Of a stretch of DNA of 64,000 nucleotides, positions 4,241-59,823 are shown piece after piece. Position 1 is the stretch's first letter. Each line of letters begins with the position of its first letter. A program made the position numbers and the translations under genes. Source of the DNA: Patescibacteria group bacterium. Lineage in GTDB: Bacteria; Patescibacteriota; Patescibacteriia; UBA9934. The notes under the pieces were generated by a model. That model was given only the letters and a program-made list of their open reading frames with translations, did not search any database and was not told the origin of the DNA. The stretch spans positions 6,277 through 70,276 of the forward strand of contig JBAYHK010000003.1 in NCBI GenBank assembly GCA_041666145.1. The letters are read 5' to 3'.

Positions 4241-4690
4241 ATGATTATCATTGCGCACAATATTCGGAGCCTTCATAACGTTGGGGCAATCTTGCGAAAT
4301 GCCGCTGCTTTTGGAGCGGAAAAGGTATTTTTAACTGGAATCACCGGCGTACCTCCAAGAAAGGAAATTGCGAAAGTTTCTCTCGGCGCTGAAGATTTGG
4401 TTTCTTGGGAGACCGGTGACATTGGAGTCGTCATCGAAGGGCTTCGATTGAAAGCGTATGAAATTTGGGGACTTGAAACTGGCGAAGGAGCGATCGATAT
4501 CGCTGATTTTGAAGGCTCAAGAATTCATCGAATGGCTCTTGTTTTGGGAAGCGAAACTGAAGGAATCGACGTGGAAACGCGTGCTATGCTGAATGGAATC
4601 ATAGAGATTCCCATGGAGAAAAAGCGATCGTTGAATGTTTCTGTGGCAAGCGGTATTGCAATGTACGCTCTTAAAAATTTGCACCTGTAG
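4241..4690 (+). CDS. SPOUT (SpoU/TrmH-family) RNA 2'-O-methyltransferase, small TrmL-like form
   Basis: It is 149 aa. The N-terminus (IIIAHNIRSLHNVGAILRNAAAFG) has the pattern typical of TrmH-family enzymes, and the C-terminal knot motifs are present (LVLGSETEGI, IEIPM ... SLNVSVASGIAMY). The last 10 nt overlap the tRNA-Arg gene. Confidence 0.75.
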   Translation: MIIIAHNIRSLHNVGAILRNAAAFGAEKVFLTGITGVPPRKEIAKVSLGAEDLVSWETGDIGVVIEGLRLKAYEIWGLETGEGAIDIADFEGSRIHRMALVLGSETEGIDVETRAMLNGIIEIPMEKKRSLNVSVASGIAMYALKNLHL

Positions 4691-4757
4691 CTTAGCTGGA
4701 TAAAGCGCCTCCCTCCGAAGGAGGAGATCGTGCGTTCGAATCGCGCCAGGTGCACCA
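4681..4757 (+). tRNA. tRNA-Arg (anticodon CCG), CCA encoded
   Basis: I folded it by hand. The acceptor stem is GCACCTG/CAGGTGC and the D arm is GCTT-AGCTGGATA-AAGC. The anticodon arm is CCTCC-CTCCGAA-GGAGG, with CCG at positions 34-36 and a 5-nt variable loop. The T arm is GTGCG-TTCGAAT-CGCGC, followed by discriminator A and CCA. Confidence 0.9.
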
Positions 4758-39472: not shown

Positions 39473-40687
39473 ATGGAGGGAAGGGGAGTGCGAAGGTTTT
39501 CCGCGATAATTCTAGGCGTAGTTGTATTTTTAGGATTGCATTCTTCTGTTTTCGCCTCGAACGAAGTTGAACAACTTCAGCAGACAATTACAGAAAAAAA
39601 GGCGGCAATTGGCGTGCTTGATGCGCAGCTGGAACAATATCGAATAAAAATTCGGGAGCTTTCTGGAAAAAGCATTTCTTTGCAAAATGATGTTGCATTA
39701 CTTGAAAATGAGATTGCGATGTCTGAACTTGACATCGCAGCAACTCAAAATTCGCTCGATCAAGAAACTCTTGAGCTTCGCATAATTGATGGACAGATTC
39801 GTGACATTGAACGTGAGTTAGCGGATCGACGTGCGATGCTGTCAGATATTTTGTTTGCAGTGAATAAATCAGATTCTCAAGGAATTTTAGATGTTGTTCT
39901 GAACATCGGTTCCATTAATGACGTATTTGATGCAGCGCAACAATTGACGAGCGTAAACAGCACCATGAAGACAGCACTAGAGGCCACGAAGCTTACAAGA
40001 CAAGACCTTGCAGATCGACAGATAAATCATGAAGAAAAGAAAATAAGTCTTTTGGAGTCGCAGACTGATCTTGAAAAGAAGTCTCAGACATTGTCAATGC
40101 AAAAAAACGCAAAAGAGATCTTAATGCAAGCAACTTCAGATTCAGAAAATCAGTATCGAACGCTCATGAGCGAGATTCGATCTGAGCAACAGGCTATCGC
40201 GAACGAAGTTGTTTCTTTGCAAGACAGTATTCAGAGCAAACTTCAGGGTATTGATGGTGGTATTGAAGGACTAGAAACAACGATTTCATGGCCCATCCAT
40301 GGAACGATAACGGCATTATTTCACGACCCTACGTATCCCTTCCGTCACTTATTTGAACATTCAGGTCTTGATATTGCTGTTCCACAAGGAACCGCCATAG
40401 AATCTGCCGCGCCAGGATTTGTCGCTAGAGTTTATAAAGGACAAGATTACGGATATTACGTTTTAATAATCCATGCGAATGGACTGGCGACTTTGTATGC
40501 GCATATGTCACGGATTGACGTTGAGCTAGACCAATACGTAGGGCGTGGCCAAGTCATTGGATTATCTGGCGGAAAACCAGGTACTGTTGGAGCTGGATTT
40601 TCAACCGGGCCTCATACGCACTTCGAAGTCCGGCTAAATGGCATTCCGGTAAATCCGCTTGCTTATCTTGATATCAATCAGCTTTAG
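39473..40687 (+). CDS. M23-family metallopeptidase with an N-terminal coiled-coil (EnvC/LytM-like)
   Basis: It has a signal/TM anchor and about 230 aa of heptad-rich coiled coil. The M23 catalytic motifs follow (HSGLDIAVPQGT ... YAHMSRI ... GPHTHFEV). Confidence 0.8.
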   Translation: MEGRGVRRFSAIILGVVVFLGLHSSVFASNEVEQLQQTITEKKAAIGVLDAQLEQYRIKIRELSGKSISLQNDVALLENEIAMSELDIAATQNSLDQETLELRIIDGQIRDIERELADRRAMLSDILFAVNKSDSQGILDVVLNIGSINDVFDAAQQLTSVNSTMKTALEATKLTRQDLADRQINHEEKKISLLESQTDLEKKSQTLSMQKNAKEILMQATSDSENQYRTLMSEIRSEQQAIANEVVSLQDSIQSKLQGIDGGIEGLETTISWPIHGTITALFHDPTYPFRHLFEHSGLDIAVPQGTAIESAAPGFVARVYKGQDYGYYVLIIHANGLATLYAHMSRIDVELDQYVGRGQVIGLSGGKPGTVGAGFSTGPHTHFEVRLNGIPVNPLAYLDINQL

Positions 40688-40718
40688 TTAGATACTCAAA
40701 TCCTTGTATTGCATCAGA

Positions 40719-40752
40719 TTAAAATAGAGCCACTGAGGTAGCTCTATTTTAA
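40719..40752 (+). terminator. rho-independent terminator after the M23 peptidase
   Basis: AAAATAGAGC-CACTGAGGTA-GCTCTATTTTAAT: a 10-bp stem with AT-rich flanks. Confidence 0.6.
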
Positions 40753-41244
40753 TACAGCGCGTTTAAATGCGTCACACGAAACGTATCTTGAATAAATAAG
40801 AGCAAAGCGCATTCGACTCTATTTGATGAAAGAATTTGCTATCGAATTTTATTCTTAATTGGAGAGGTTGCTTAAATTAGAAATAAAGACAATCGAGAAT
40901 AGAGGCATGCAGAGTAAAAGATTTGGATGGTTTTTGCGGCTTCATAAAACTTCGTTCAAGATGTTTTATCTATAGGTATACATCACTAGCTTCGTAAATG
41001 ATATATTGTACGACACATTGCATCGAACTCGGAAAACAGGAAAAGAAGAGAGAAATTAATTTCTTTTATTCCCCTCTCCTCTTTATAGTCCGAAATACTT
41101 CTGAGCTAAAAACTTCGTTTCATTTTTTACTCATCATGTATTTGAAAAATTACCGAGAACCTTCCGTTCTCTAGTCCAAATCTCTAGTATCCATAATCAC
41201 CTGCTTTATAAAAGAACACGCCCCATCCCCTATCGAATCGAACA

Positions 41245-42126
41245 TTATTTTTTATATACGTAAGCTCCAAATCTAAGATCTATGTATTCTTTTGGTGATA
41301 CAAAATTATTCGCAGTAATAACCGCTCGTAACGCCCTCAACTGTTCGTCTACGTCTTCCGAGAGACTGAAATAAAGGTCGTATGGCAATGTAGTATCTAC
41401 GCGAACATAGGGAGACTGTGTTCCATTAATCTCGTACGCAACCGCATGTATTCCGTTTGTTGGAAGCTTCATTGAAATGGTAAGAATTGTTTTTGCGGAA
41501 TTTTCCGGAAGCTCTGTAATGGATTCGTTTTCAGTATTTATAACAATTGGCATGTCTCCCTGTAATATCAGCAGCGTCTCTTCTGGATTCTGTGCCGCGA
41601 CACCAATGCGAACATCGATCGCGCGTGATTCTTCCAGGGTCGCGTCTCTCACGAAGAAACCCCGAGTATCAAGCATGGCAGTTTTTTCTTTTGTCCTTAA
41701 TGCTATGGTAGTGATTTTTTCTTGAATATCGACTGAAAACGATTGACCAGATCTAACAACTTTGGCAGATTCGACAGCAAATAACTGAACAATAAGGCTC
41801 TCTATATTCGAAGTGCTTGTAGAATAGATATTTGCACTACTGCACATCGGAAACGCCGCATCTGCAAGAGCCTGCCGCACCGTCTTATCGACAGATTCTA
41901 CGTTAATGGTTGATACACCCTGGACAGTCACTGACTCAATCTGAAACCAAGGAATATACGTCGCCCCAATACAAATCGCCATTGCAGAAAAAAATAAAAG
42001 AACCACACTAATGATAATCATCCAGCGCGGCTTACATACCTTAAGAAAAAGTGGATTTTTTAACGTTCCATCGTCATGATCTTTCGCATGCCTAAGACGA
42101 AGAAAGTCCCGTTGTTTCTTTAACAT
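41245..42126 (-). CDS. ftsQ: cell division protein FtsQ/DivIB
   Basis: It has an N-terminal TM helix and a POTRA domain (FQIESVTVQG). The C-terminal beta-domain ends in the FtsQ-typical YIDLRFG ... VYK. Confidence 0.7.
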   Translation of the reverse strand: MLKKQRDFLRLRHAKDHDDGTLKNPLFLKVCKPRWMIIISVVLLFFSAMAICIGATYIPWFQIESVTVQGVSTINVESVDKTVRQALADAAFPMCSSANIYSTSTSNIESLIVQLFAVESAKVVRSGQSFSVDIQEKITTIALRTKEKTAMLDTRGFFVRDATLEESRAIDVRIGVAAQNPEETLLILQGDMPIVINTENESITELPENSAKTILTISMKLPTNGIHAVAYEINGTQSPYVRVDTTLPYDLYFSLSEDVDEQLRALRAVITANNFVSPKEYIDLRFGAYVYKK

Positions 42127-51629: not shown

Positions 51630-52019
51630 CTAAATCTCTCGATTCTCTTGAGAAATACTTAAAAGAAGGAATTCGACAAGAACAATAAGAAGAACGAGAA
51701 GAACCATTGTTCCAAAGGAAAAAAGCTCCTTTGAAAGAAGAACTAAACATGCAATAAATAGGCCGGAAAAAAGTATCCCCTGTCGAAAAGAACGCGCGAC
51801 TGCATGGTCGATCTGTCTGTCAGGATATTTCCATGCTCGAAGCGTCGTGCCTATCATCGTAGATAGCCCCGCGATTCCTGCTCCGAGTGTAAGATAAAAA
51901 ATGAAGTACGCTAAAAATCCTGCAGTAACAGGATCTATTGCGATCATTACAATGCACCATGCGGAAATACTAATCGCAGTTCCAAGCGCAAGAACTACAA
52001 GATACTGACGAAGAGTCAT
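51630..52019 (-). CDS. small membrane protein (hypothetical, about 4 TM)
   Basis: Only the hydrophobicity pattern supports this one. Confidence 0.35.
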   Translation of the reverse strand: MTLRQYLVVLALGTAISISAWCIVMIAIDPVTAGFLAYFIFYLTLGAGIAGLSTMIGTTLRAWKYPDRQIDHAVARSFRQGILFSGLFIACLVLLSKELFSFGTMVLLVLLIVLVEFLLLSISQENREI

Positions 52020-52036
52020 ACAGAGAAAATTATACC

Positions 52037-52375
52037 TTAAAACTTTCCTCGTTCTATTTGTACTCTCGGAGTTACTGTAAAAATTTCTACTTCTGGTACC
52101 TCCTCTTTCATTTCAGTAATAATTTTAGAGGCCATTCCATCAATATCATATGACGCTCCTGCATTGTTGCACCCAATAACAAGCGTACCGTTTAAAAAAC
52201 TTATTGCACGAACGTCCTTACGAAGCTGCGTATCACCGAGCAAGGCATCAAGAACATCATTCGCTCGATCGATAATTATCGCCGCTGCAACCTGCTTCGC
52301 AACTCCATGTCTTCGAAGTGTGCCCTCGAGTAAACTTCCAATTTTTGTTAATGATGCTCGTCTAAGCTTTGGCAT
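52037..52375 (-). CDS. DUF721/DciA-like protein (possible replicative-helicase loader family)
   Basis: The C-terminal pattern (DGTLVIGCNNAGASYDIDGMASKIITEM) fits the G-x-L-x-V-x-V-xS-xWA-x-EL pattern of DUF721. It is about 110 aa. The start is uncertain: the ATG at 52375 overlaps the helicase stop by 14 nt. Confidence 0.4.
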   Translation of the reverse strand: MPKLRRASLTKIGSLLEGTLRRHGVAKQVAAAIIIDRANDVLDALLGDTQLRKDVRAISFLNGTLVIGCNNAGASYDIDGMASKIITEMKEEVPEVEIFTVTPRVQIERGKF

Positions 52376-55295
52376 AAGGACAAATGTCTTTAAAATCACA
52401 GTATTGGCAATGAGGTCCTGGCGTTGCCTCAAAAAGGGATGTGCGAATCTGTTCCATGGTAGCGTGAATTTGCATCTTTAACTTTTCTCTATCTTTATCT
52501 GTTGGTTCAAAACTCACTGCAGTATTTGACTCGACGTAATAGAAAGATAATTTCTTCACAACGAGTGGAGGAGTAAAACTTTCTTCAGCTGCAATAGCAT
52601 AAAGTACCAGCTGCCGACGGTCATCCCACTCTAGCTTAACTTTCGGTGTTCCAGTTTTATAATCAACAATCTCCACACCTCCCTCAACATCATCGATTCT
52701 ATCTATTCTTCCCTTCACGAGAACATCACCAACCTTGAGTGTAAAACCTTTCTCTAGAAATTTTGGAGACGGCGGATTCAAAGCCATGATCGCAAAATAT
52801 TCTTTAAGGTATTTCTGTCCACGCTCTTTGTAATCGTCTCGCGTTGCAGAATCTGGATACCACTCATCAATCCAGGCGGCATCATACATTTCCATAAATT
52901 CATGGAGTGATGGCTTTGTAATCTGATGCAACTCTGAATCAAAGAGCGATGCCTGCATTGCTATCTTATTCGCAATAATCCGTTCCATATATCGCTGTAA
53001 CGTGTTATGCATCGATTTCCCAAAACTCATTTGATGTTTTCCATAAGATGGAACTCCAATAATGTGCGCATATTTATATTGTTGAGGACAAGACGAAAAG
53101 GCAGCAATTTGTGAAAAGCTTATTTTGTCTGGAATGTGGATTTGCGCATCGCCTTTACGATCTGGTTTTGAATCTCCGGAAAGTCTTGAAGCGATTCGTT
53201 CATATCCAGATGCAACAACCGCTGACGTGAAACCTAGTTCCGCGAGAAAACGGGAAATCTTTTTCTTTCTTGCGCCACCGTAGTCATCCGCGCTCATGAG
53301 ATAAAGGCCTTCCTTTGCTCTTGTTATTGCCACATAAAATAACCGACGCTCTTCTGCAATATGGTCATCGAGCGCCTCATTCTTTTCTAATAAACCCAAC
53401 GGAAAATCGAATGCACTTGATCGGCTAACGCTCGGAAAACGCTGTTCAACAAGATTGACTACGAATACGTATCGAAATTCCAAACCTTTTGATCCATGCA
53501 CGGTCATAACAGAAACGACATCCGGTCCGCTCTCCGGATCTTGCGCAATCGCACCCCCCTCTCCTGCCGCACGTTCGGCGTCAAACTCTTCTAAAAATTT
53601 TGACAAAGTCACATCATCATTCGTCACACTGAATCGTTTTAAGCGAGCAAGAAACTTTTGCAACTGACGATAAAGCTCCTGTTGCTCTTCTTCAGAAAAC
53701 ATTTGACAATCACCTAAAATACCAGACTCTTTAACAATGGCAACAAAAAGTTCAACAATGGGAAGTCGCTTTGCACGATCTCGAAGTTTTCCAATTGTTG
53801 AAACAATATCCAATATACTATTTCGTCCTTCCATGCTTATTCCCGCAGCGTCCGCATAAGTCAACAGGTCAAAAAGAGACATTCCTTTGCGCTTTGCATA
53901 AAACATTAAGCTCGCAAGATCTGATTGCGAGAGGCCAAGTCTTGGATGTGAAAGAACTCGATAAAGCGAAGGACTGTCATGCGGTGTGTTGATCACACGG
54001 AGATACGCAAGAACATCAAGAATGATTGGTTTTGAGTACAAGCCAGATAACGCCATGAATCGAAAAGGGATTCCTGCATATTCAAGCGCCTCAAGAAATG
54101 GATCTGCATGGTCATTCCCACGAACGAGAATGGCAAAGTCGCTCCATGCAACTTCATTCTCATTATGAAGTTTTGTGATGATCTCGATAGTATTCTCAAC
54201 TTCATCCTCAAGTGTTGCCGCATGAATATGGCAGACCTCGCCAAGATATTCGGTGTTTGACTGAAGTTGTTTCGACAAACCCTCTGTAATCTCTAATCGA
54301 TGCGGATTATTTCCAGCTATCGATGTATATGCGTAATCGAGAATAACTTTTCCGCTTCGATAATTCTGAACAAGAACAATCTTCGCAGTATTCGGATAGT
54401 CCTCTCTAAATCGTAAAATATTTGCTAACGCCGCACCTCGAAACTTATAAATTGCCTGATCATCATCGCCAACAATTGTAAGATTATTTTTTGGCGCAGC
54501 AAGGAGTCTTACCAATTCATATTGCACGCTATTCGTGTCTTGGAATTCATCAACAACAATGTACTTATATTGCTCCCGATACTTCGCAAGAATGTTCGGG
54601 CGAGTTTTTAAAAGTTCGACTGAATATGCTAAAAGATCGCCGAAATCAAGAGCATCTTCAGCAAGAAGAATTTCTTGATACTTCTTATAAGCAAACGCAA
54701 TCTCGCGATGCTTAGCAAACTCTAGCCGCTCTTCTTCTGGCATTGCTGCAAATGCTACAGGATCTCTTTTTTCAGCATCATTGATCAGCCTTTCTACGTG
54801 ATCTATATAGTGCTGTGGCGAAATGGTCTCGTCTTTTGCGCGAGAAAAATGACTAAGAAGCAATCGAAAAAACTTTGTTGGATTACCGCGCGGACGATAA
54901 TAATCTAACGCGAAATCTGAAAGATGACGGCGCATAAGAAGCCACGCGTCAACTTCTGACACAACAACAAAGTCTTGGGGAAGCCCTATGTCGACACCAT
55001 GCTCTCGAAGCATTCGTTCACAAAATGCATGAAATGTGGAAATTGAAAGATCGACGTACCCCATTGGCAAAAGAACGTCAACACGTTCTTCCATTTCATT
55101 CGCTGCCTTCTCAGTAAAAGTAAGGGCAAGAATCTGGTTCGGAGTAGCCTTCCCTTCTGCAATAAGCCAAGCAATGCGCTTTGTAATCACCGTGGTCTTT
55201 CCAGTTCCTGCACCTGCAATGATCATGAGCGGTCCTTCGCCATGAATTACCGCTCGTCGTTGCTCATCATTTAAACCTTGAAGAAGGTTAGACAT
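52362..55295 (-). CDS. UvrD/PcrA-family SF1A helicase fused to a C-terminal Cas4/RecB-type PD-(D/E)XK nuclease with a 4-Cys cluster
   Basis: The N-terminus has Walker A (IAGAGTGKTT) and the UvrD helicase motifs (TFTEKAANEM ... VDEFQDTN ... VHGSKGLEF ... YVAITRAK). The C-terminal roughly 200 aa carry the nuclease core (RIDRIDDVEGGVEIVDYKTG), bracketed by Cys residues (SCPQQY ... CQYCDFKDICPY), as in AddB/Cas4 iron-staple nucleases. Confidence 0.8.
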   Translation of the reverse strand: MSNLLQGLNDEQRRAVIHGEGPLMIIAGAGTGKTTVITKRIAWLIAEGKATPNQILALTFTEKAANEMEERVDVLLPMGYVDLSISTFHAFCERMLREHGVDIGLPQDFVVVSEVDAWLLMRRHLSDFALDYYRPRGNPTKFFRLLLSHFSRAKDETISPQHYIDHVERLINDAEKRDPVAFAAMPEEERLEFAKHREIAFAYKKYQEILLAEDALDFGDLLAYSVELLKTRPNILAKYREQYKYIVVDEFQDTNSVQYELVRLLAAPKNNLTIVGDDDQAIYKFRGAALANILRFREDYPNTAKIVLVQNYRSGKVILDYAYTSIAGNNPHRLEITEGLSKQLQSNTEYLGEVCHIHAATLEDEVENTIEIITKLHNENEVAWSDFAILVRGNDHADPFLEALEYAGIPFRFMALSGLYSKPIILDVLAYLRVINTPHDSPSLYRVLSHPRLGLSQSDLASLMFYAKRKGMSLFDLLTYADAAGISMEGRNSILDIVSTIGKLRDRAKRLPIVELFVAIVKESGILGDCQMFSEEEQQELYRQLQKFLARLKRFSVTNDDVTLSKFLEEFDAERAAGEGGAIAQDPESGPDVVSVMTVHGSKGLEFRYVFVVNLVEQRFPSVSRSSAFDFPLGLLEKNEALDDHIAEERRLFYVAITRAKEGLYLMSADDYGGARKKKISRFLAELGFTSAVVASGYERIASRLSGDSKPDRKGDAQIHIPDKISFSQIAAFSSCPQQYKYAHIIGVPSYGKHQMSFGKSMHNTLQRYMERIIANKIAMQASLFDSELHQITKPSLHEFMEMYDAAWIDEWYPDSATRDDYKERGQKYLKEYFAIMALNPPSPKFLEKGFTLKVGDVLVKGRIDRIDDVEGGVEIVDYKTGTPKVKLEWDDRRQLVLYAIAAEESFTPPLVVKKLSFYYVESNTAVSFEPTDKDREKLKMQIHATMEQIRTSLFEATPGPHCQYCDFKDICPYAKA

Positions 55296-55296
55296 A

Positions 55297-56610
55297 TTAC
55301 AGCTCAACAATGAGCTGCGCGGAATCAACAAAGAATTTTACCCCATCCTGCGTTCCAATATACCAACCAAATCCTGCAAGCATACAGAGAAAAACCATCA
55401 CAATTCCAATCGAAATTTTCCAATTTGCTGGAAACAAAAGAACAGTTTCTTCCTGTTGTTGTAAAACCAATCTGATATAAAACATTACACACGCCAAAAC
55501 AAAAACGATGAGCACGAAAATAACTAATGCTGCAAAAAAAGGATGCATCTGAAGTCCGTATCCAATCCCTATCATGGTACTTGTGAATGTACTTGCTATA
55601 GGAAAAAATGCGCTTCCAACAATAAGCAATCCAAGTAATACAGTTGTAATCGGCAACATGCGCGACAGTTGTCGAATGCCGGAACATTTTGTAGTTTTAT
55701 ATGTTGCATGCAACATTCCAGCAATAGAAAAGAACGCAGAAGCAAGAATAGCGACCGCTGCAAGATGCATTAATGCAGGAATCGTACCAGCGAATCCAAA
55801 TCCGCTCATACAAAGAATAAGACCGACGTGAAAACAAGAAATCTCGAAAAAGAATTTCTTGTAATTATTCTGACGCAAAAGAGAAAACGCAAAAATAAAA
55901 AGTGTAATAAGGCCAAATATCATAAGTACCTTTCCAGTCCACACTCCGCCATCAGCAAGCGCGACGTCTACGATCTCTCGACAACGAAGAATGCCAAAAA
56001 CGCCAACAAGCATGGACATTGGACCAATAAGCGCAACAAGAGGAGAGAGCATCTTGCTGTAAAGCTCAGAAAGACCAAAGTGCATCGGAGCGATACCAAT
56101 CGAAACGCCAAAACCTAAAAATACAAGAACAAAAGCAGACTGCACCTGCCAAGGCGCAAAACTACCAACAACGTCCATGATTGAAGAGATCATCCCTGCC
56201 TCCATGATCGATACACCATGTTGCATCGCAACAATTTTTAATATTCCGACACCGACACCACCTATGATCGCTCCAAAAGCAGCACGTATTCCGAATCGAC
56301 GAATAAGTTCTTTTGTATTGTTTCTTTCGTGAAGAACGAGGCTAGCCACACCGACCGCACTCAATCCCTGAATGCTGAGCCACAACAATCCCAAATGGTT
56401 CGCCATCAACCCGATCGCTCCAAAAATAATTGATGCAACAAGAAGGCCAATTGCATACTTCTGACGCTTTGGTGACAAGGTCCCTGTTTTTACTTCATTC
56501 TGAAAAACATTCACGCTCATCAATACACCAGCAACTGTAATAACAGCGGCAACCCCAAGCATGAATAAAGTCAGAACATCTGTATTCCAAAGCTCAAGAA
56601 AATAGTTCAT
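55297..56610 (-). CDS. antiporter-module-like polytopic membrane protein (divergent NuoN/MnhD-type, Proton_antipo_M-like)
   Basis: It is 437 aa with about 13 TMs. The central segment FAPWQVQSAF ... IAPMHFGLSELYSKMLSPLVALIGPMSM echoes the W-x-P-x-A ... P-x-S-A-L-I motif of complex I/Mrp antiporter subunits, but the match is degenerate. Confidence 0.5.
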   Translation of the reverse strand: MNYFLELWNTDVLTLFMLGVAAVITVAGVLMSVNVFQNEVKTGTLSPKRQKYAIGLLVASIIFGAIGLMANHLGLLWLSIQGLSAVGVASLVLHERNNTKELIRRFGIRAAFGAIIGGVGVGILKIVAMQHGVSIMEAGMISSIMDVVGSFAPWQVQSAFVLVFLGFGVSIGIAPMHFGLSELYSKMLSPLVALIGPMSMLVGVFGILRCREIVDVALADGGVWTGKVLMIFGLITLFIFAFSLLRQNNYKKFFFEISCFHVGLILCMSGFGFAGTIPALMHLAAVAILASAFFSIAGMLHATYKTTKCSGIRQLSRMLPITTVLLGLLIVGSAFFPIASTFTSTMIGIGYGLQMHPFFAALVIFVLIVFVLACVMFYIRLVLQQQEETVLLFPANWKISIGIVMVFLCMLAGFGWYIGTQDGVKFFVDSAQLIVEL

Positions 56611-56617
56611 ACAAAAA

Positions 56618-57400
56618 TTAAGATCCTAAAGACCAAAGAGTCACCGCTATTGCTGCAAAGCTACAAAGAATACTGAACCCAACAAGCCGTCGTGTAACAA
56701 AAGCTGGAATGTGCTTCCATGCAATGTGAATAAGATCGAAACCTAATGCGACAATAAACATCTTTGCTATAAGAATTCCAACAGTTTGCAAAACAACAAT
56801 ATTCGATGGAACATCGAAAGTTTTCAGCGCCTCAGTTGGTACAAGAAAGTTGGCAAGAAATAATCCGATCGTTACCGTGGCAATAACGCGCACATCGACA
56901 AGCTCTACGCGCTCTAAATCTTTTGACTCTCGAAGGCTGAGAACAATGAAAATCATTGCAACCGCAAGAAGAATGAATTGAACATCCCATGCTCCGGAAC
57001 TAGCCAAGAAGAAAAGCGAGCTGTTCGCACTTCCTGTTGTAATAGCGAGAGCCGACAAAACAACACCAAAAGCCCCAATAGAACGAAGGAGAATTGATCG
57101 AGGATCGATCATAACGACTGCACCTCCAAAAAGAGCAAGAAGGGCAAGAAGGCTCATTAAGTTACCGTCAGTTTCCGACAACCCAAACAGTCCAAACAAC
57201 GGGAGCATCGCAATCACAATCAAAAATGTACCAAATGCTACAGCTGACCATGGATTATTGCTCCGCGTATATGAAAACCATGGAAATTTCCACTCTTTCC
57301 TTGAGACAACATTGATAATCGAGGTTCCAATTTCTGCACAAATTGGCGCAATGGCTACAACTAAAGCTATCTGAAGCAAACTTAATTCAATAGAGGTCAT
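56618..57400 (-). CDS. polytopic membrane protein, possibly NuoH/HycD-like
   Basis: It is 260 aa with about 8 TMs. The N-terminal helix (LLQIALVVAIAPICAEIG) resembles the start of HycD/NuoH. Its start overlaps the upstream stop by 4 nt. Confidence 0.35.
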   Translation of the reverse strand: MTSIELSLLQIALVVAIAPICAEIGTSIINVVSRKEWKFPWFSYTRSNNPWSAVAFGTFLIVIAMLPLFGLFGLSETDGNLMSLLALLALFGGAVVMIDPRSILLRSIGAFGVVLSALAITTGSANSSLFFLASSGAWDVQFILLAVAMIFIVLSLRESKDLERVELVDVRVIATVTIGLFLANFLVPTEALKTFDVPSNIVVLQTVGILIAKMFIVALGFDLIHIAWKHIPAFVTRRLVGFSILCSFAAIAVTLWSLGS

Positions 57401-59166
57401 AACGCAATTGCAAGGGTAATAATGATAATGAACAACATAAACACGATCGATAATGGAACGGAGTGTATTGATCTATTTTCTTGCCAAGTTTTCACACGAT
57501 TTACACCAACAAAAATAGGAGCGGCAATTCGCATTGAAACAGCCCTTTGTATTCCTCGATAAAAAATGGCAAGACGCGATTCTTTTTCTTCTCTAGATGC
57601 CTCAATATCCTCTTCGAATATCACGCCTGCTTCAGATTGATGATTTTTATCTCGGAATACCCAAACCAAAATGCTTGCAAGCACAACACCAAAAACAAGA
57701 ACAATAATTCGAACGACTCCGTCTCCTGCTAATAAGGCTGCACGCCAAGAATCAACTTCCATAGCTAACGGAGTCGCACCAATCCTATAAAGTCCAGCTG
57801 GCACAAGAAATGCTCCGATTGTACTTATTGCAGTTAAGACCATAACTCCGAAAGGTATTTGTTCTGCCTGTTGAACAGAAGTAAGAGAAGCAAATTCCTT
57901 ACGCAATTGAGAAACCTCTCGTATCCCTCTTCGAAATAAGGAGCCAAACATCACAAAAAAACCTATTAAAATATAGGCAGCAAATCCACGAGACAAACTT
58001 GAGAGATTACCGATAATCGCAGAACCAATCATCCATTGGCTACAAAAAAGAATGGAAGGTGGAAGTCCTAAAGCGGCAAGCACTTGAAGCAGCCTAATTC
58101 CCCTCCCTGACGAATCGATTCCTAAAATGAATGGAAATATTTCCCGAACTGTTTCAATAATTACAACGCCCGCAACATTCAAAAGCGTTGCAAAAAGCGC
58201 GATATTCATTGCCTCATAGGCACCTACAGATTGAAAAAGAATCGCAACGCTCATCATGAAGACCGTTGTTCCTGCTCCAAAAATAAATCCGACAATTGGA
58301 TTCTTTTTCCTTGTTATTACAATCATTGTCAATATTCCAATAAAACCGAGAGGAATAGAAAACCACGAAGAAAGAGGCGGGAGTATGAAGAGAACCTGTC
58401 TAAGAACGACGTACATCGAAATAGTAAAAAACATCATCTGAACAAAAACTCTACTTCCAGCATCTTCAAGAACAGGAAGAGACAAGGATGTAAAGCGATG
58501 GAATGGCCACAAGTCCATAAAAAGAACTGTTCCGAATGTGAACAGTCCAAATGCAACTGCTAGGCGCATCGTGTCGATCTCTGCTGCAATATATGACAGC
58601 GTAGAAAAGTCATTAAATAATGCTCCGGAAGAAAGAATAAATAGTCCGGAAATGATACTTATTGCCCCTACATATTTTGTAATAAACAATCGTCCTATAG
58701 CCCCTGCGGTTATTTCTGTTGTGCTGATGGCCATAAAAAACGTCGCACCTCCAACCATAAGTAGCAATGCCGCAGCTAACCCAATAATATTTCCCGCAAA
58801 TAAAGTCCAAGTCGCTCCAATAATGGCCACAGAAAGTGCAAATGTTCTCTCTATCAATTGTGAAGTTTTACGCTTCGAATACCACATCAACGAAATTGCA
58901 AAAATCACAATGCTCATTGGTAACAAAAACATTGCAGAAAACTTATCAAACGTTGCTGTCATTCCAAAAAAGAGATTTGTTGAAACTACATACGGCTCTT
59001 CAGAAAGTAGACCGTAAATTCCTGCCGCAGCTCCGGCCAACCCTGTTAAAACAAAAAAAGCTGAACTAATAAATGTGGCTCGTTCCTTCTGAAAAAGAAC
59101 GGAAGTGACACAGGAAATAACAGGACCCAATACCAGAACCATTAAGCACCATTCCCAAGGCGTCAT
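57397..59166 (-). CDS. antiporter-module-like polytopic membrane protein (divergent NuoL/MnhA-type)
   Basis: It is 589 aa with about 16 TMs. The segment MDLWPFHRFTSLSLPVLEDAGSRVFVQMMFF sits at the position of the conserved antiporter-module motif. Confidence 0.45.
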   Translation of the reverse strand: MTPWEWCLMVLVLGPVISCVTSVLFQKERATFISSAFFVLTGLAGAAAGIYGLLSEEPYVVSTNLFFGMTATFDKFSAMFLLPMSIVIFAISLMWYSKRKTSQLIERTFALSVAIIGATWTLFAGNIIGLAAALLLMVGGATFFMAISTTEITAGAIGRLFITKYVGAISIISGLFILSSGALFNDFSTLSYIAAEIDTMRLAVAFGLFTFGTVLFMDLWPFHRFTSLSLPVLEDAGSRVFVQMMFFTISMYVVLRQVLFILPPLSSWFSIPLGFIGILTMIVITRKKNPIVGFIFGAGTTVFMMSVAILFQSVGAYEAMNIALFATLLNVAGVVIIETVREIFPFILGIDSSGRGIRLLQVLAALGLPPSILFCSQWMIGSAIIGNLSSLSRGFAAYILIGFFVMFGSLFRRGIREVSQLRKEFASLTSVQQAEQIPFGVMVLTAISTIGAFLVPAGLYRIGATPLAMEVDSWRAALLAGDGVVRIIVLVFGVVLASILVWVFRDKNHQSEAGVIFEEDIEASREEKESRLAIFYRGIQRAVSMRIAAPIFVGVNRVKTWQENRSIHSVPLSIVFMLFIIIITLAIAL

Positions 59167-59317: not shown

Positions 59318-59347
59318 AATTCATTCAACAAAAGTGAGCCTTCTGGC
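59318..59347 (-). terminator. rho-independent terminator after atpC
   Basis: It lies 30 bp past the atpC stop. On the minus strand it reads AAAAGTGAGCC-AGAA-GGCTCACTTTTGTTG, with a stem followed by a T-run. Confidence 0.7.
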
Positions 59348-59376
59348 TCACTTTTAATCCCTAATCCTGACGAAGC

Positions 59377-59823
59377 CTAATCCTGACTCATTCTCGCTCT
59401 TCCCTTCCCCTTCTTCATTGCTACTCGGTATCGCGCAAGTTCTCGTTCCAAATGTGCTGCAGCATCAGCATAAGAAACATCATTCTTATTTCGCATTGCC
59501 TTTATTGCCTCTTGTGCTCGCGCTTTTGCAGCTTCTATTGCAGCAAGCTCTAATTCATCAATACGTTCAGCGGTGTCCGCCAAAACAACCACAGTACCGT
59601 CCTGACGTACTTCAAACATGCCAGTCGACGTTGCCAAAAGTTCCTCGGTGCCGTTATGTTTTACTCGCATTTCTCCGGCCTTCAAAAGCGCCAAAAGTGG
59701 AGCATGGTGCGGCAATACTGTTATTTCCCCCATTCCTGTCATAACCGAAATACTATCCGCATCACCTTCGTATACGATTCGTTCAGGAGTAGCGACCGTG
59801 TAATGAAGTTTTACATCTGACAT
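59377..59823 (-). CDS. atpC: F1 ATP synthase epsilon subunit
   Basis: It has a beta-sandwich N-domain (ITVLPHHAPLLALLKAGEMRV). A helical hairpin follows. Confidence 0.85.
   Translation of the reverse strand: MSDVKLHYTVATPERIVYEGDADSISVMTGMGEITVLPHHAPLLALLKAGEMRVKHNGTEELLATSTGMFEVRQDGTVVVLADTAERIDELELAAIEAAKARAQEAIKAMRNKNDVSYADAAAHLERELARYRVAMKKGKGRARMSQD

Follow-up and report, generated by a model that had tools for sequence, protein, structure and literature searches.

A putative redox-less descendant of a Hyf-type hydrogenase membrane arm encoded next to the ATP synthase operon in Patescibacteria

In the structure of the Escherichia coli formate hydrogenlyase-1 (FHL-1; PDB 7Z0S), the entire membrane arm is made of HycC and HycD, with no homologs of NuoA/J/K or of MbhA-G (PMC9474812). 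The antiporter-like HycC contains 16 transmembrane (TM) helices and a short lateral helix, and it contacts HycD through an ND3-like extension at its C-terminus, while HycD is an ND1 homolog with eight TM helices (PMC9474812). The FHL-2 (hydrogenase-4) membrane arm is HyfBCDEF and thus adds HyfD, HyfE and HyfF (PMC13645896). Mrp (Mnh/Sha) is a redox-independent complex with two antiporter-like subunits, MrpA and MrpD; it needs MrpB, MrpC, MrpE, MrpF and MrpG, keeps the Lys/Glu relay and has no ND1-like subunit. The DAB/Mps systems, in which the NuoL-like DabB/MpsA is paired with the non-redox DabA/MpsB, are a precedent for an antiporter-like protein outside a redox complex; DabB retains the canonical charged residues. 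Here we analyze a module of three genes, P1, P2 and P3, found in a 64,000-nucleotide stretch of a Patescibacteria group bacterium genome (assembly GCA_041666145.1, contig JBAYHK010000003.1, positions 6,277 to 70,276 of the forward strand; hereafter the window, with positions counted from its first letter). The window also corresponds to contig JBAZWH010000006.1 of the Patescibacteria MAG (metagenome-assembled genome) GCA_041660465.1 and to k141_232338 of ENA ERZ27249449.

All three genes lie on the minus strand as intact open reading frames (ORFs): P1 at 57397..59166 (589 amino acids, aa), P2 at 56618..57400 (260 aa) and P3 at 55297..56610 (437 aa). The first two genes share 4 nt (ATGA, 57397-57400), which is consistent with translational coupling, and P2 and P3 are separated by 7 nt (56611-56617). 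Hydropathy indicates polytopic proteins with about 14-16, 8 and 12-13 hydrophobic segments, respectively. By sequence comparison, the counterpart of P1 is HyfB/HycC, that of P2 the ND1/NuoH homolog HyfC/HycD, and that of P3 HyfF, so that the gene order mirrors that of E. coli hyfB-hyfC-(hyfD-hyfE)-hyfF and of hycC-hycD. P1 and P2 also share sizes, order and number of hydrophobic segments with HycC and HycD, P3 being an additional antiporter-like subunit with respect to FHL-1. We propose, with a probability of about 0.6, that P1-P2-P3 is a highly diverged and redox-less descendant of the arm of a Hyf/formate-hydrogenlyase-type (group 4) [NiFe] hydrogenase, which would not be a canonical pump.

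P3 passes the Pfam family PF00361 (Proton_antipo_M) with an E-value of 6.8e-13 and 48.9 bits for a cutoff of 21.5, and all of its best-scoring NCBIfam models describe hydrogenase 4 subunit F (E = 1.5e-29, well under the equivalog cutoff). Profile-profile comparison with hhalign gave a probability of 98.5% with E. coli HyfF and of 99.3-99.5% with an alignment of seven E. coli antiporter-like sequences. A search of PDB sequences with the P3 profile returned only two matches, 6u8y_H and 7z0s_C, the latter being HycC. As P3 covers positions 61-481 of the HyfF model, it is devoid of the first ~60 HyfF residues.

P1 is a very divergent HyfB/HycC-type subunit, and the window's own sequence had no match in direct Pfam, NCBIfam or PDB sequence searches. 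Its assignment comes from orthologs of a sister clade described below, which match the P1 family HMM at E ~1e-92 to 1e-97, pass PF00361 (E 1e-16 to 1e-19, 61-70 bits versus a cutoff of 21.5) and find hydrogenase 4 subunit B (HyfB) as their best NCBIfam model (E 5e-45 to 6e-35), ahead of MrpD (~1e-22), NuoM (~1e-19), NuoL (~6e-9) and MrpA (~1e-7). The canonical motifs FP(F/M)HR and SGGLAKTLPK are retained in these orthologs and are degraded or deleted in the window's clade. Taken alone, the P1 alignment of the window's three-gene clade matched the E. coli antiporter-like alignment with 96% probability (E ~1e-9), its score of 77.0 comparing with 22.3 +/- 2.7 for block-shuffled templates and 17 for a reversed one. 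An alignment of 15-17 P1 sequences raised the probability to 99.1-99.3% (E 6e-19 to 4e-20) over ~540 columns. P1 and P3 compared directly stayed at noise level (0.3%), and their kinship is therefore visible only through the wider family. A weak AlphaFold2 model of P1, built from an eight-sequence alignment (predicted local distance difference test, pLDDT, 50; predicted template-modelling score, pTM, 0.42), was compared with the PDB by Foldseek: the 50 best hits were all antiporter-like chains, NuoL/ND5 first, with TM-scores of just 0.22-0.33. The number of hydrophobic segments fits the 14-TM core of this superfamily, which has two inverted 5-TM repeats and broken helices TM7 and TM12.

For P2, no match was found to Pfam (PF00146 NADHdh included) or NCBIfam for the 11 members tested, window P2 among them, nor to PDB sequences, and the comparison of eight close P2 sequences with NuoH/HycD/HyfC was not significant (3.8%). 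An exhaustive HMMER search brought in the divergent members P0017-P0027, and the most divergent, P0027, aligns pairwise with HycD by BLASTP at E = 2e-6 over the N-terminal 80 aa (APLVQGI...PTDASWMFRVLP in one protein and APLLSGI...GPDASGWVFRLTP in the other). The resulting 19-sequence P2 alignment (A5) matched NuoH/HycD/HyfC in hhalign at 89.1% (E = 2.3e-6, 223 columns), and at 95.7% (E = 1e-8) over 252 co-linear columns with a permissive alignment setting. With this setting the observed score was 63.9, versus 17.9 +/- 3.6 with a maximum of 27.6 for 30 block-shuffled templates, and the reversed template gave 3.4% with a score of 24.4. The same P2 alignment showed only 0.4% probability with the antiporter-like alignment and at most 1.3% with HyfE, NuoJ, NuoK and NuoA. 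We therefore read P2, with a confidence somewhat lower than for P1 and P3, as a shortened and degenerate ND1/HycD-like protein of about eight hydrophobic segments. Its structural model, also built from eight sequences, is weak (pLDDT 48), and the Foldseek hits were mostly G-protein-coupled receptors at E>0.5, that is, noise.

An earlier note on this DNA, made from the letters alone, had described three co-directional polytopic genes of these lengths and spacing, placed between a helicase-nuclease gene and the atp operon with a terminator and ~210 bp after atpC, and this layout is confirmed by the ORFs, the hydropathy and a hairpin at 59331-59354. It had also reported a degenerate antiporter signature in the two large proteins and a HycD/NuoH-like middle protein, while doubting its own family assignment. 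The assignment holds: PF00361 for P3 and the P1 orthologs together with the controlled hhalign scores indicate that the signature reflects real homology, seen for P1 only through orthologs and profile-profile comparison, and the P2 scores and the P0027-HycD alignment bear out the middle protein. As for the Pfam searches it proposed, Proton_antipo_M matched P3 and the P1 orthologs but not the window's P1, and NADHdh did not match P2.

Intact orthologs of the module were found in at least 18 further loci, down to ~30% identity. With respect to the closest relative, L003 (84-87% aa identity), the ratio of nonsynonymous to synonymous substitution rates (dN/dS) is 0.16 for P1, 0.13 for P2 and 0.125 for P3, while the comparison genes atpC, helicase and atpD gave 0.146, 0.05 and 0.018, respectively. 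In the sister clade, the dN/dS of P1 and P3 is 0.08-0.12. These ratios of 0.08-0.16 indicate that the module genes are maintained by purifying selection, and therefore that the module has a function. Moreover, motifs are invariant between relatives that are only 30-38% identical, namely LSSGALF(N/S)DF, LFILPPL and (E/D)AMN..LFA in P1, and APMH.GLSELYSK, HATYKTTK.SG.R and MIGIGYGLQ in P3. The families are rare: P1 is represented by 8 clusters among 5.8 billion, and for P2 only 13 relatives turned up in 1.84 billion cluster representatives. When GTDB species genomes were scanned, the P3 alignment detected no relative and P1 detected seven, sister clade included. The distribution observed confines the module to a small, Uhrbacteria-like clade of Patescibacteria.

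The sister clade (L011-L015) comprises Candidatus Uhrbacteria and Patescibacteria metagenome-assembled genomes (MAGs) with P1 orthologs 29-32% identical to the window's P1. The gene order there is atpC, P1, P3, helicase, with P1-P3 gaps of 9 nt, and no P2 was detected in these five loci, even by a deep P2 profile at E<=1. Thus, as judged from gene content, the conserved core is the antiporter-like pair P1+P3, and P2 is dispensable in the sister clade. The C-terminal part of P1 consists of a 56-residue hydrophilic stretch (~508-563) followed by a terminal TM helix (564-589). This helix (...LTLAIAL) ends P1 in 12/12 sequences from P2-bearing lineages and is absent in 5/5 from P2-less loci. Since it co-varies with P2, and since the C-terminal extension of HycC touches HycD, P1 and P2 may still be in physical contact. 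Residues 525-563, a candidate for a NuoL-like lateral helix, have a hydrophobic moment of 0.25-0.33 for a protein-wide value of 0.20 +/- 0.12.

The strongest amphipathic segment of P1, FVMFGSLFRRGIREVSQLRKEFASL, lies elsewhere, at residues ~400-428 (window ~57883-57969) between core helices, with a moment of 0.66 for a mean of 0.20. The start of P1 is placed eight codons later in an ENA gene call (581 aa) than in the NCBI call (589 aa; L020 14443 versus L021 14419; 59143-59166 in the window); we favor the 589-aa start because the N-terminus MTPWEW is conserved across clades.

To compare the proton path, reference residues were carried across via profile alignments after their numbers had been matched to the MG1655 sequences. 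The TM5 Glu (NuoM E144, HycC E135) is replaced in P1 by L/A/T/M/F and in P3 by Q/H, with I or S in two loci and no aligned residue in the two-gene sister clade. The TM7 Lys (NuoM K234), also missing from HycC (Leu208), becomes F/L/G/T in P1 and S/A in P3, with F or V in two loci, while the TM8 Lys (NuoM K265, HycC K239) becomes T/V/G/I/L in P1 and L/V/I/A/M in P3. At the TM11 His/Lys pair (HycC H328, K336), P1 carries E/D318 and Ala, and P3 keeps H282 with A/T/Q/H at the Lys position. Finally, the TM12 Lys/Glu (NuoM E407, NuoL K399, HycC E391) is Q/V/I/L/M/A in P1 and T/M/Q/V/L/G/A in P3, with Glu in 2/13. The only relay residues retained in P3 are His261, His282 and Lys251. The alignments of P3 and of the two-gene-clade P1 are anchored by flanking motifs, in which W..IE has become WLSIQ, GFGTK..FPMH has become GFGVS..APMH, and W-E has become W-A. 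Unlike these proteins, HycC keeps Glu135, Lys239, His328/332, Lys336 and Glu391.

A similar picture was obtained for P2, which keeps 7/62 of the residues invariant in E. coli NuoH/HycD/HyfC. The E-channel glutamates kept by HycD are deleted with no aligned residue in P2 (E138 and E199, together with F122) or replaced (E130 by I/V/K/R, E189 by L, E201 by S, E203 by R/H), and Y102 has become A/G and R108 G/A. The sole E-channel survivor is the position of HycD E206, present as a near-invariant Asp169. The PFD..EAE.EL..G...EYSG ND1 loop between TM5 and TM6 is missing, EYSG being deleted. In HycD, mutating E138 or E199/E201/E203 abolishes H2 production (PMC9474812). In P1, no equivalent could be aligned for HycC Cys537, a conserved residue of the ND3-like loop. 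Since the Glu/Lys relay of P1 and P3 is non-ionizable and the E-channel and ND1 loop of P2 are nearly gone, the alignments indicate that canonical proton pumping and redox coupling have been lost from the module.

The gene directly upstream of P1 is atpC in all the loci with upstream sequence (18/18: the window, L001-L005, L009-L015, L017-L019, L022 and L024). In the window, atpC (F1 epsilon; 59377..59823, minus strand, identified from its ORF, translation and Pfam annotation) is the last gene of a complete atp operon (atpI-like/B/E/F/H/A/G/D/C). The 210-bp spacer to P1 (59167..59376, minus strand) contains a terminator-like hairpin, AAAGTGAGCC-AGAA-GGCTCACTTT at 59331-59354 (-14.8 kcal/mol), followed by a T-rich tail, and the remainder is presumably the module's own 5' region; no Rfam family and no sigma-70-like promoter on the coding strand were found in these 210 bp. 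A hairpin with a T-rich tail, of differing sequence, follows atpC in 12/13 related loci, so that the module is probably a separate transcription unit. The c-subunit shows AEAIAIY around its carboxylate, with no Ser/Thr after the Glu, a pattern which, given the features of Na+-binding c-rings, points to an H+-coupled enzyme. The phylum largely lacks complexes I-IV and often retains F- or V-type ATPases (PMC13293708), and CPR (candidate phyla radiation) genomes from hyperalkaline sites are deficient in most electron-transport-chain complexes, while ATPases are widely detected (PMC11974145).

Partners of the module were searched for by phmmer (E<1) with 20 E. coli Nuo/Hyc/Hyf/Hyp proteins against the window and 16 related loci, 340 kb in total. 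No homolog of NuoB/CD/E/F/G/I, HycB/E/F/G, HyfA/G/H/I or HypA/B was found there, nor any NuoA/J/K/HyfE-like protein; the queries did not include MrpE, MrpF or MrpG. Unlike FHL-2, the best subfamily for the P1 orthologs (HyfB) and P3 (HyfF) and one whose HyfC, like HycD, is akin to P2, the module has therefore no HyfA/G/H/I arm, Hyp genes, HyfD or HyfE in its vicinity, and unlike FHL-1 it has no HycB/E/F/G nearby. It further differs from FHL-2 by its scores, far under the NCBIfam equivalog cutoffs (for instance 103 versus 543 bits), by the loss of proton-path residues, by the length of P2 (260 versus 315 aa), by the shorter P3 and by its place beside the atp operon of a Patescibacteria genome. 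As the FHL-1 arm works as HycC and HycD, the absence of NuoA/J/K is normal for this lineage, while that of the peripheral arm is not. Compared with complex I, the module implies the same antiporter-like (P1, P3) and NuoH-like (P2) folds, as far as sequence can tell, but NuoA/J/K and the peripheral arm are absent from the 340 kb, key residues are lost and the NuoL/NuoM/NuoN models score under the Hyf ones. Finally, the genes neighboring the module are accounted for and none of them looks like DabA (DUF2309), the large soluble partner, no search aimed at DabA having been made, and DAB, unlike the P2-bearing module, has no ND1-like subunit.

The module could instead be an active stand-alone ion translocator, either a minimal Mrp-like antiporter or a proton conduit, that exchanges or dissipates the gradient of the F1Fo ATPase. 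Two adjacent antiporter-like subunits recall MrpA and MrpD, the position after the atp operon is constant in 18/18 loci, the phylum keeps its ATPase largely without respiratory complexes (PMC13293708), and the genes are under purifying selection. Invariant Asp, Glu, Arg and His also remain within hydrophobic segments, the conserved ionizable residues there being D74/K75, D186, R256, E/D318 and R505 in P1, D169 in P2, and R209/R211, D215, H261, H282 and H356 in P3. However, the TM5 Glu, TM7 Lys, TM8 Lys/His and TM12 Lys/Glu are replaced in both subunits and in all clades, so that translocation would be possible only by a non-canonical path; the E-channel of P2 is dismantled, no MrpB/C/E/F/G-like protein (within the limit on Mrp queries given above) and no NuoK/J/A-like one was found near the module in the 340 kb, and the HyfB and HyfF models outscore those of MrpA and MrpD for the P1 orthologs and P3. 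We consider such a translocator unlikely.

The earlier note had taken the module for a working stand-alone ion-translocating arm, a view that the non-ionizable relay of P1 and P3 and the near loss of the P2 E-channel and ND1 loop contradict; the broken-helix Lys/Glu whose conservation it proposed to check are not conserved, the TM7 Lys and TM12 Lys/Glu being replaced in P1 and P3. Its remark on the heavy substitution of the conserved motif positions is correct and proves to be the central point. That no NuoB/NuoD-type redox partner and no Mrp small subunits lie nearby is in line with the phmmer results over the 340 kb (no NuoK/J/A/HyfE-like ORF, within the limit on Mrp queries given above), and the comparison of related CPR genomes that it suggested revealed the constant atpC-P1 adjacency within a block conserved across the clade. 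As for its other idea, a remnant of a lost Ech/Mbh-type complex, a group 4 hydrogenase-type remnant fits best, but the closest subfamilies are HyfB and HyfF and not Ech/Mbh specifically.

It is very improbable that the operon is simply split, the arm docking a hydrogenase-like or dehydrogenase-like peripheral module encoded elsewhere. Hydrogenases do occur in some Patescibacteria, and the genome coverage is limited to the 64 kb plus ~10 kb upstream here and to +/-10 kb for the related genomes. Yet P2 is devoid of the ND1 loop, while in all known relatives the peripheral arm is docked by a P2-type subunit (PMC9474812), the sister clade has no P2 at all, the HycC Cys537 equivalent could not be aligned in P1 and no partner was found within 340 kb.

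Almost certainly, the module is not a decaying, functionless relic made of pseudogenes in the making: catalytic residues have been lost, P2 is missing from one clade and there are deletions with respect to canonical family members, but the ORFs are intact in more than 18 loci spanning 30% identity, their dN/dS of 0.08-0.16 is similar to that of atpC (0.146) and they contain long invariant motifs.

An unrelated transporter family, or a membrane component of a defence system acting with the adjacent helicase-nuclease, is hardly credible either, since, although direct searches of Pfam, NCBIfam and PDB matched neither P1 nor P2 and the helicase begins one base past P3 and matches PADLOC GajB models, the controlled profile-profile results and the Pfam matches of the P1 orthologs argue against another family, while the GajB models match any UvrD-type helicase, P1-P3 have no PADLOC match, the helicase is followed by DciA, MreBCD and PBP2 in a housekeeping context and it is not invariably the neighbor of the module.

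Several points weigh against the proposal that the module descends from a Hyf-type arm and has lost canonical pumping. The residue mapping relies on alignments of 12-25% identity and is less certain for the window's own P1, and the invariant acidic and basic residues in hydrophobic segments may leave room for some ion path. The two structural models are poor (pLDDT 50 and 48) and do not establish the fold, the broken helices or the subunit contacts. As the partner search covers 340 kb, a distant partner module may be encoded elsewhere in the genome. Lastly, the adjacency to atp may merely mirror clade-wide synteny.

Indeed, the clade shares a syntenic block made of CvpA, TatD, the atp operon, the module, the helicase, a DciA-like gene, a 129-aa membrane protein, MreBCD and PBP2. 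As the whole TatD-PBP2 block is syntenic, the atp adjacency hints at a functional link without proving one, and this conserved adjacency is the one observation that suggests a coupling of the module to the F-ATPase. It persists in L018 although the downstream neighbor differs in this locus. The helicase-nuclease, the usual downstream neighbor, gives way to Dus/RimK genes in L018 and to different genes on the contig of P0027, and is probably not part of the module. In the window, this 977-aa UvrD-type helicase/PD-(D/E)XK nuclease fusion spans 52362..55295 on the minus strand (Pfam UvrD-helicase 2e-80, UvrD_C 2e-50, PDDEXK_1 1e-34), its ATG at 55295 lying one base past the P3 stop codon; the mechanical ORF list instead gives a TTG start at 55331, which is an artefact.

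Other observations were made on the related loci. In L011 (4420-6271) and L014 (8132-10000), atpC and P1 are separated by ~1.85 kb with a GC content of 0.55-0.56, while 90-550 bp separate them in other loci. These stretches hold only short, low-plausibility ORFs on both strands and may be non-coding DNA, a mobile element or a gene in a degraded state. L009, L010 and L011 (CAYHKX010000003.1, CAYMYA010000001.1 and CAYROW010000005.1) are labelled 'uncultured Gammaproteobacteria bacterium', yet show Patescibacteria-type synteny and proteins like those of the Uhrbacteria MAGs; the labels are probably wrong. L017 and L018 (JGI 3300045347 and 3300045353) have an identical P2 and the same layout from their left end through P3, past which they diverge completely, with helicase/DciA/MreB in L017 and Dus/RimK/riboflavin genes in L018, due either to a genuine rearrangement or to a chimeric assembly.

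The membrane protein of the syntenic block (126-129 aa, ~4 TM helices, MTLRQYLVVLALGTAISISAWCIVMIAIDP...) is encoded at 51630-52019 on the minus strand of the window and is very highly conserved across all clades (L004 15349-15738, L010 17044-17433, L017 15721-16110, L019 15388-15777). It is invariably found between the DciA-like gene and mreB and has no Pfam or PADLOC family. As a candidate for a missing NuoK/NuoA/NuoJ/HyfE-like subunit this 129-aa protein was ruled out (probability at most 1%). Elsewhere in the window, the only Rfam match is a single tRNA gene (4681-4754, plus strand). The cumulative GC skew rises up to ~40 kb and falls beyond, and the large ORFs, mostly on the plus strand on the left and on the minus strand on the right, converge at ~40000-42000; this region resembles a replication terminus, or else the boundary of an assembly or inversion.

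Under the proposed descent from a Hyf-type arm, P1, P2 and P3 most likely assemble as one membrane complex, in which P1 would pack its terminal TM helix against P2 in the way HycC packs its C-terminal extension against HycD. Such a complex would neither pump protons nor dock a hydrogenase-type module. We tentatively suggest, as one possibility among others, that it fulfills a redox-independent membrane function tied to the ATPase-driven energization of cells devoid of an electron transport chain. It could be a secondary or passive ion conduit running via the few invariant polar residues still left, P1 D74, D186, R256 and E/D318, P3 D215, D220, H261, H282 and H356, and P2 D169, or it could have a structural role in the membrane. 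More speculatively still, and with the odds well against it, an arm that has lost both its enzyme and its relay may have taken on a new role in these bacteria as an accessory dedicated to the F1Fo ATP synthase. There it might, for example, bind the Fo stator, organize the membrane around Fo, or gate a leak by which the membrane potential produced by ATP hydrolysis is set. If true, this function would have no known counterpart among antiporter-like or ND1-like proteins.

The components fall within known superfamilies, and full-text searches of the literature aimed at the module returned no description of it: an enzyme-less, relay-less Hyf-type arm, whether or not it has its ND1-like subunit, maintained by selection beside the atp operon in Patescibacteria was not found described. 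For annotation, P1 and P2, two families of 'hypothetical protein', now have a place in known superfamilies. The antiporter-like and ND1-like subunits have been studied almost wholly as proton pumps of complex I, Mrp and membrane-bound hydrogenases, and the module departs from this pattern: the Glu/Lys relay is thought to be essential, yet an arm that lacks it, and that has no enzyme module in its vicinity, persists under purifying selection. It thus offers a natural experiment, a 'dead pump', on what the antiporter-like/ND1-like scaffold does once pumping is gone. The module also suggests that a group-4-hydrogenase-like complex was present in, or acquired by, an ancestor of this Patescibacteria clade and, should its link to the ATP synthase prove functional, it could bear on how ultrasmall cells energize their membrane.

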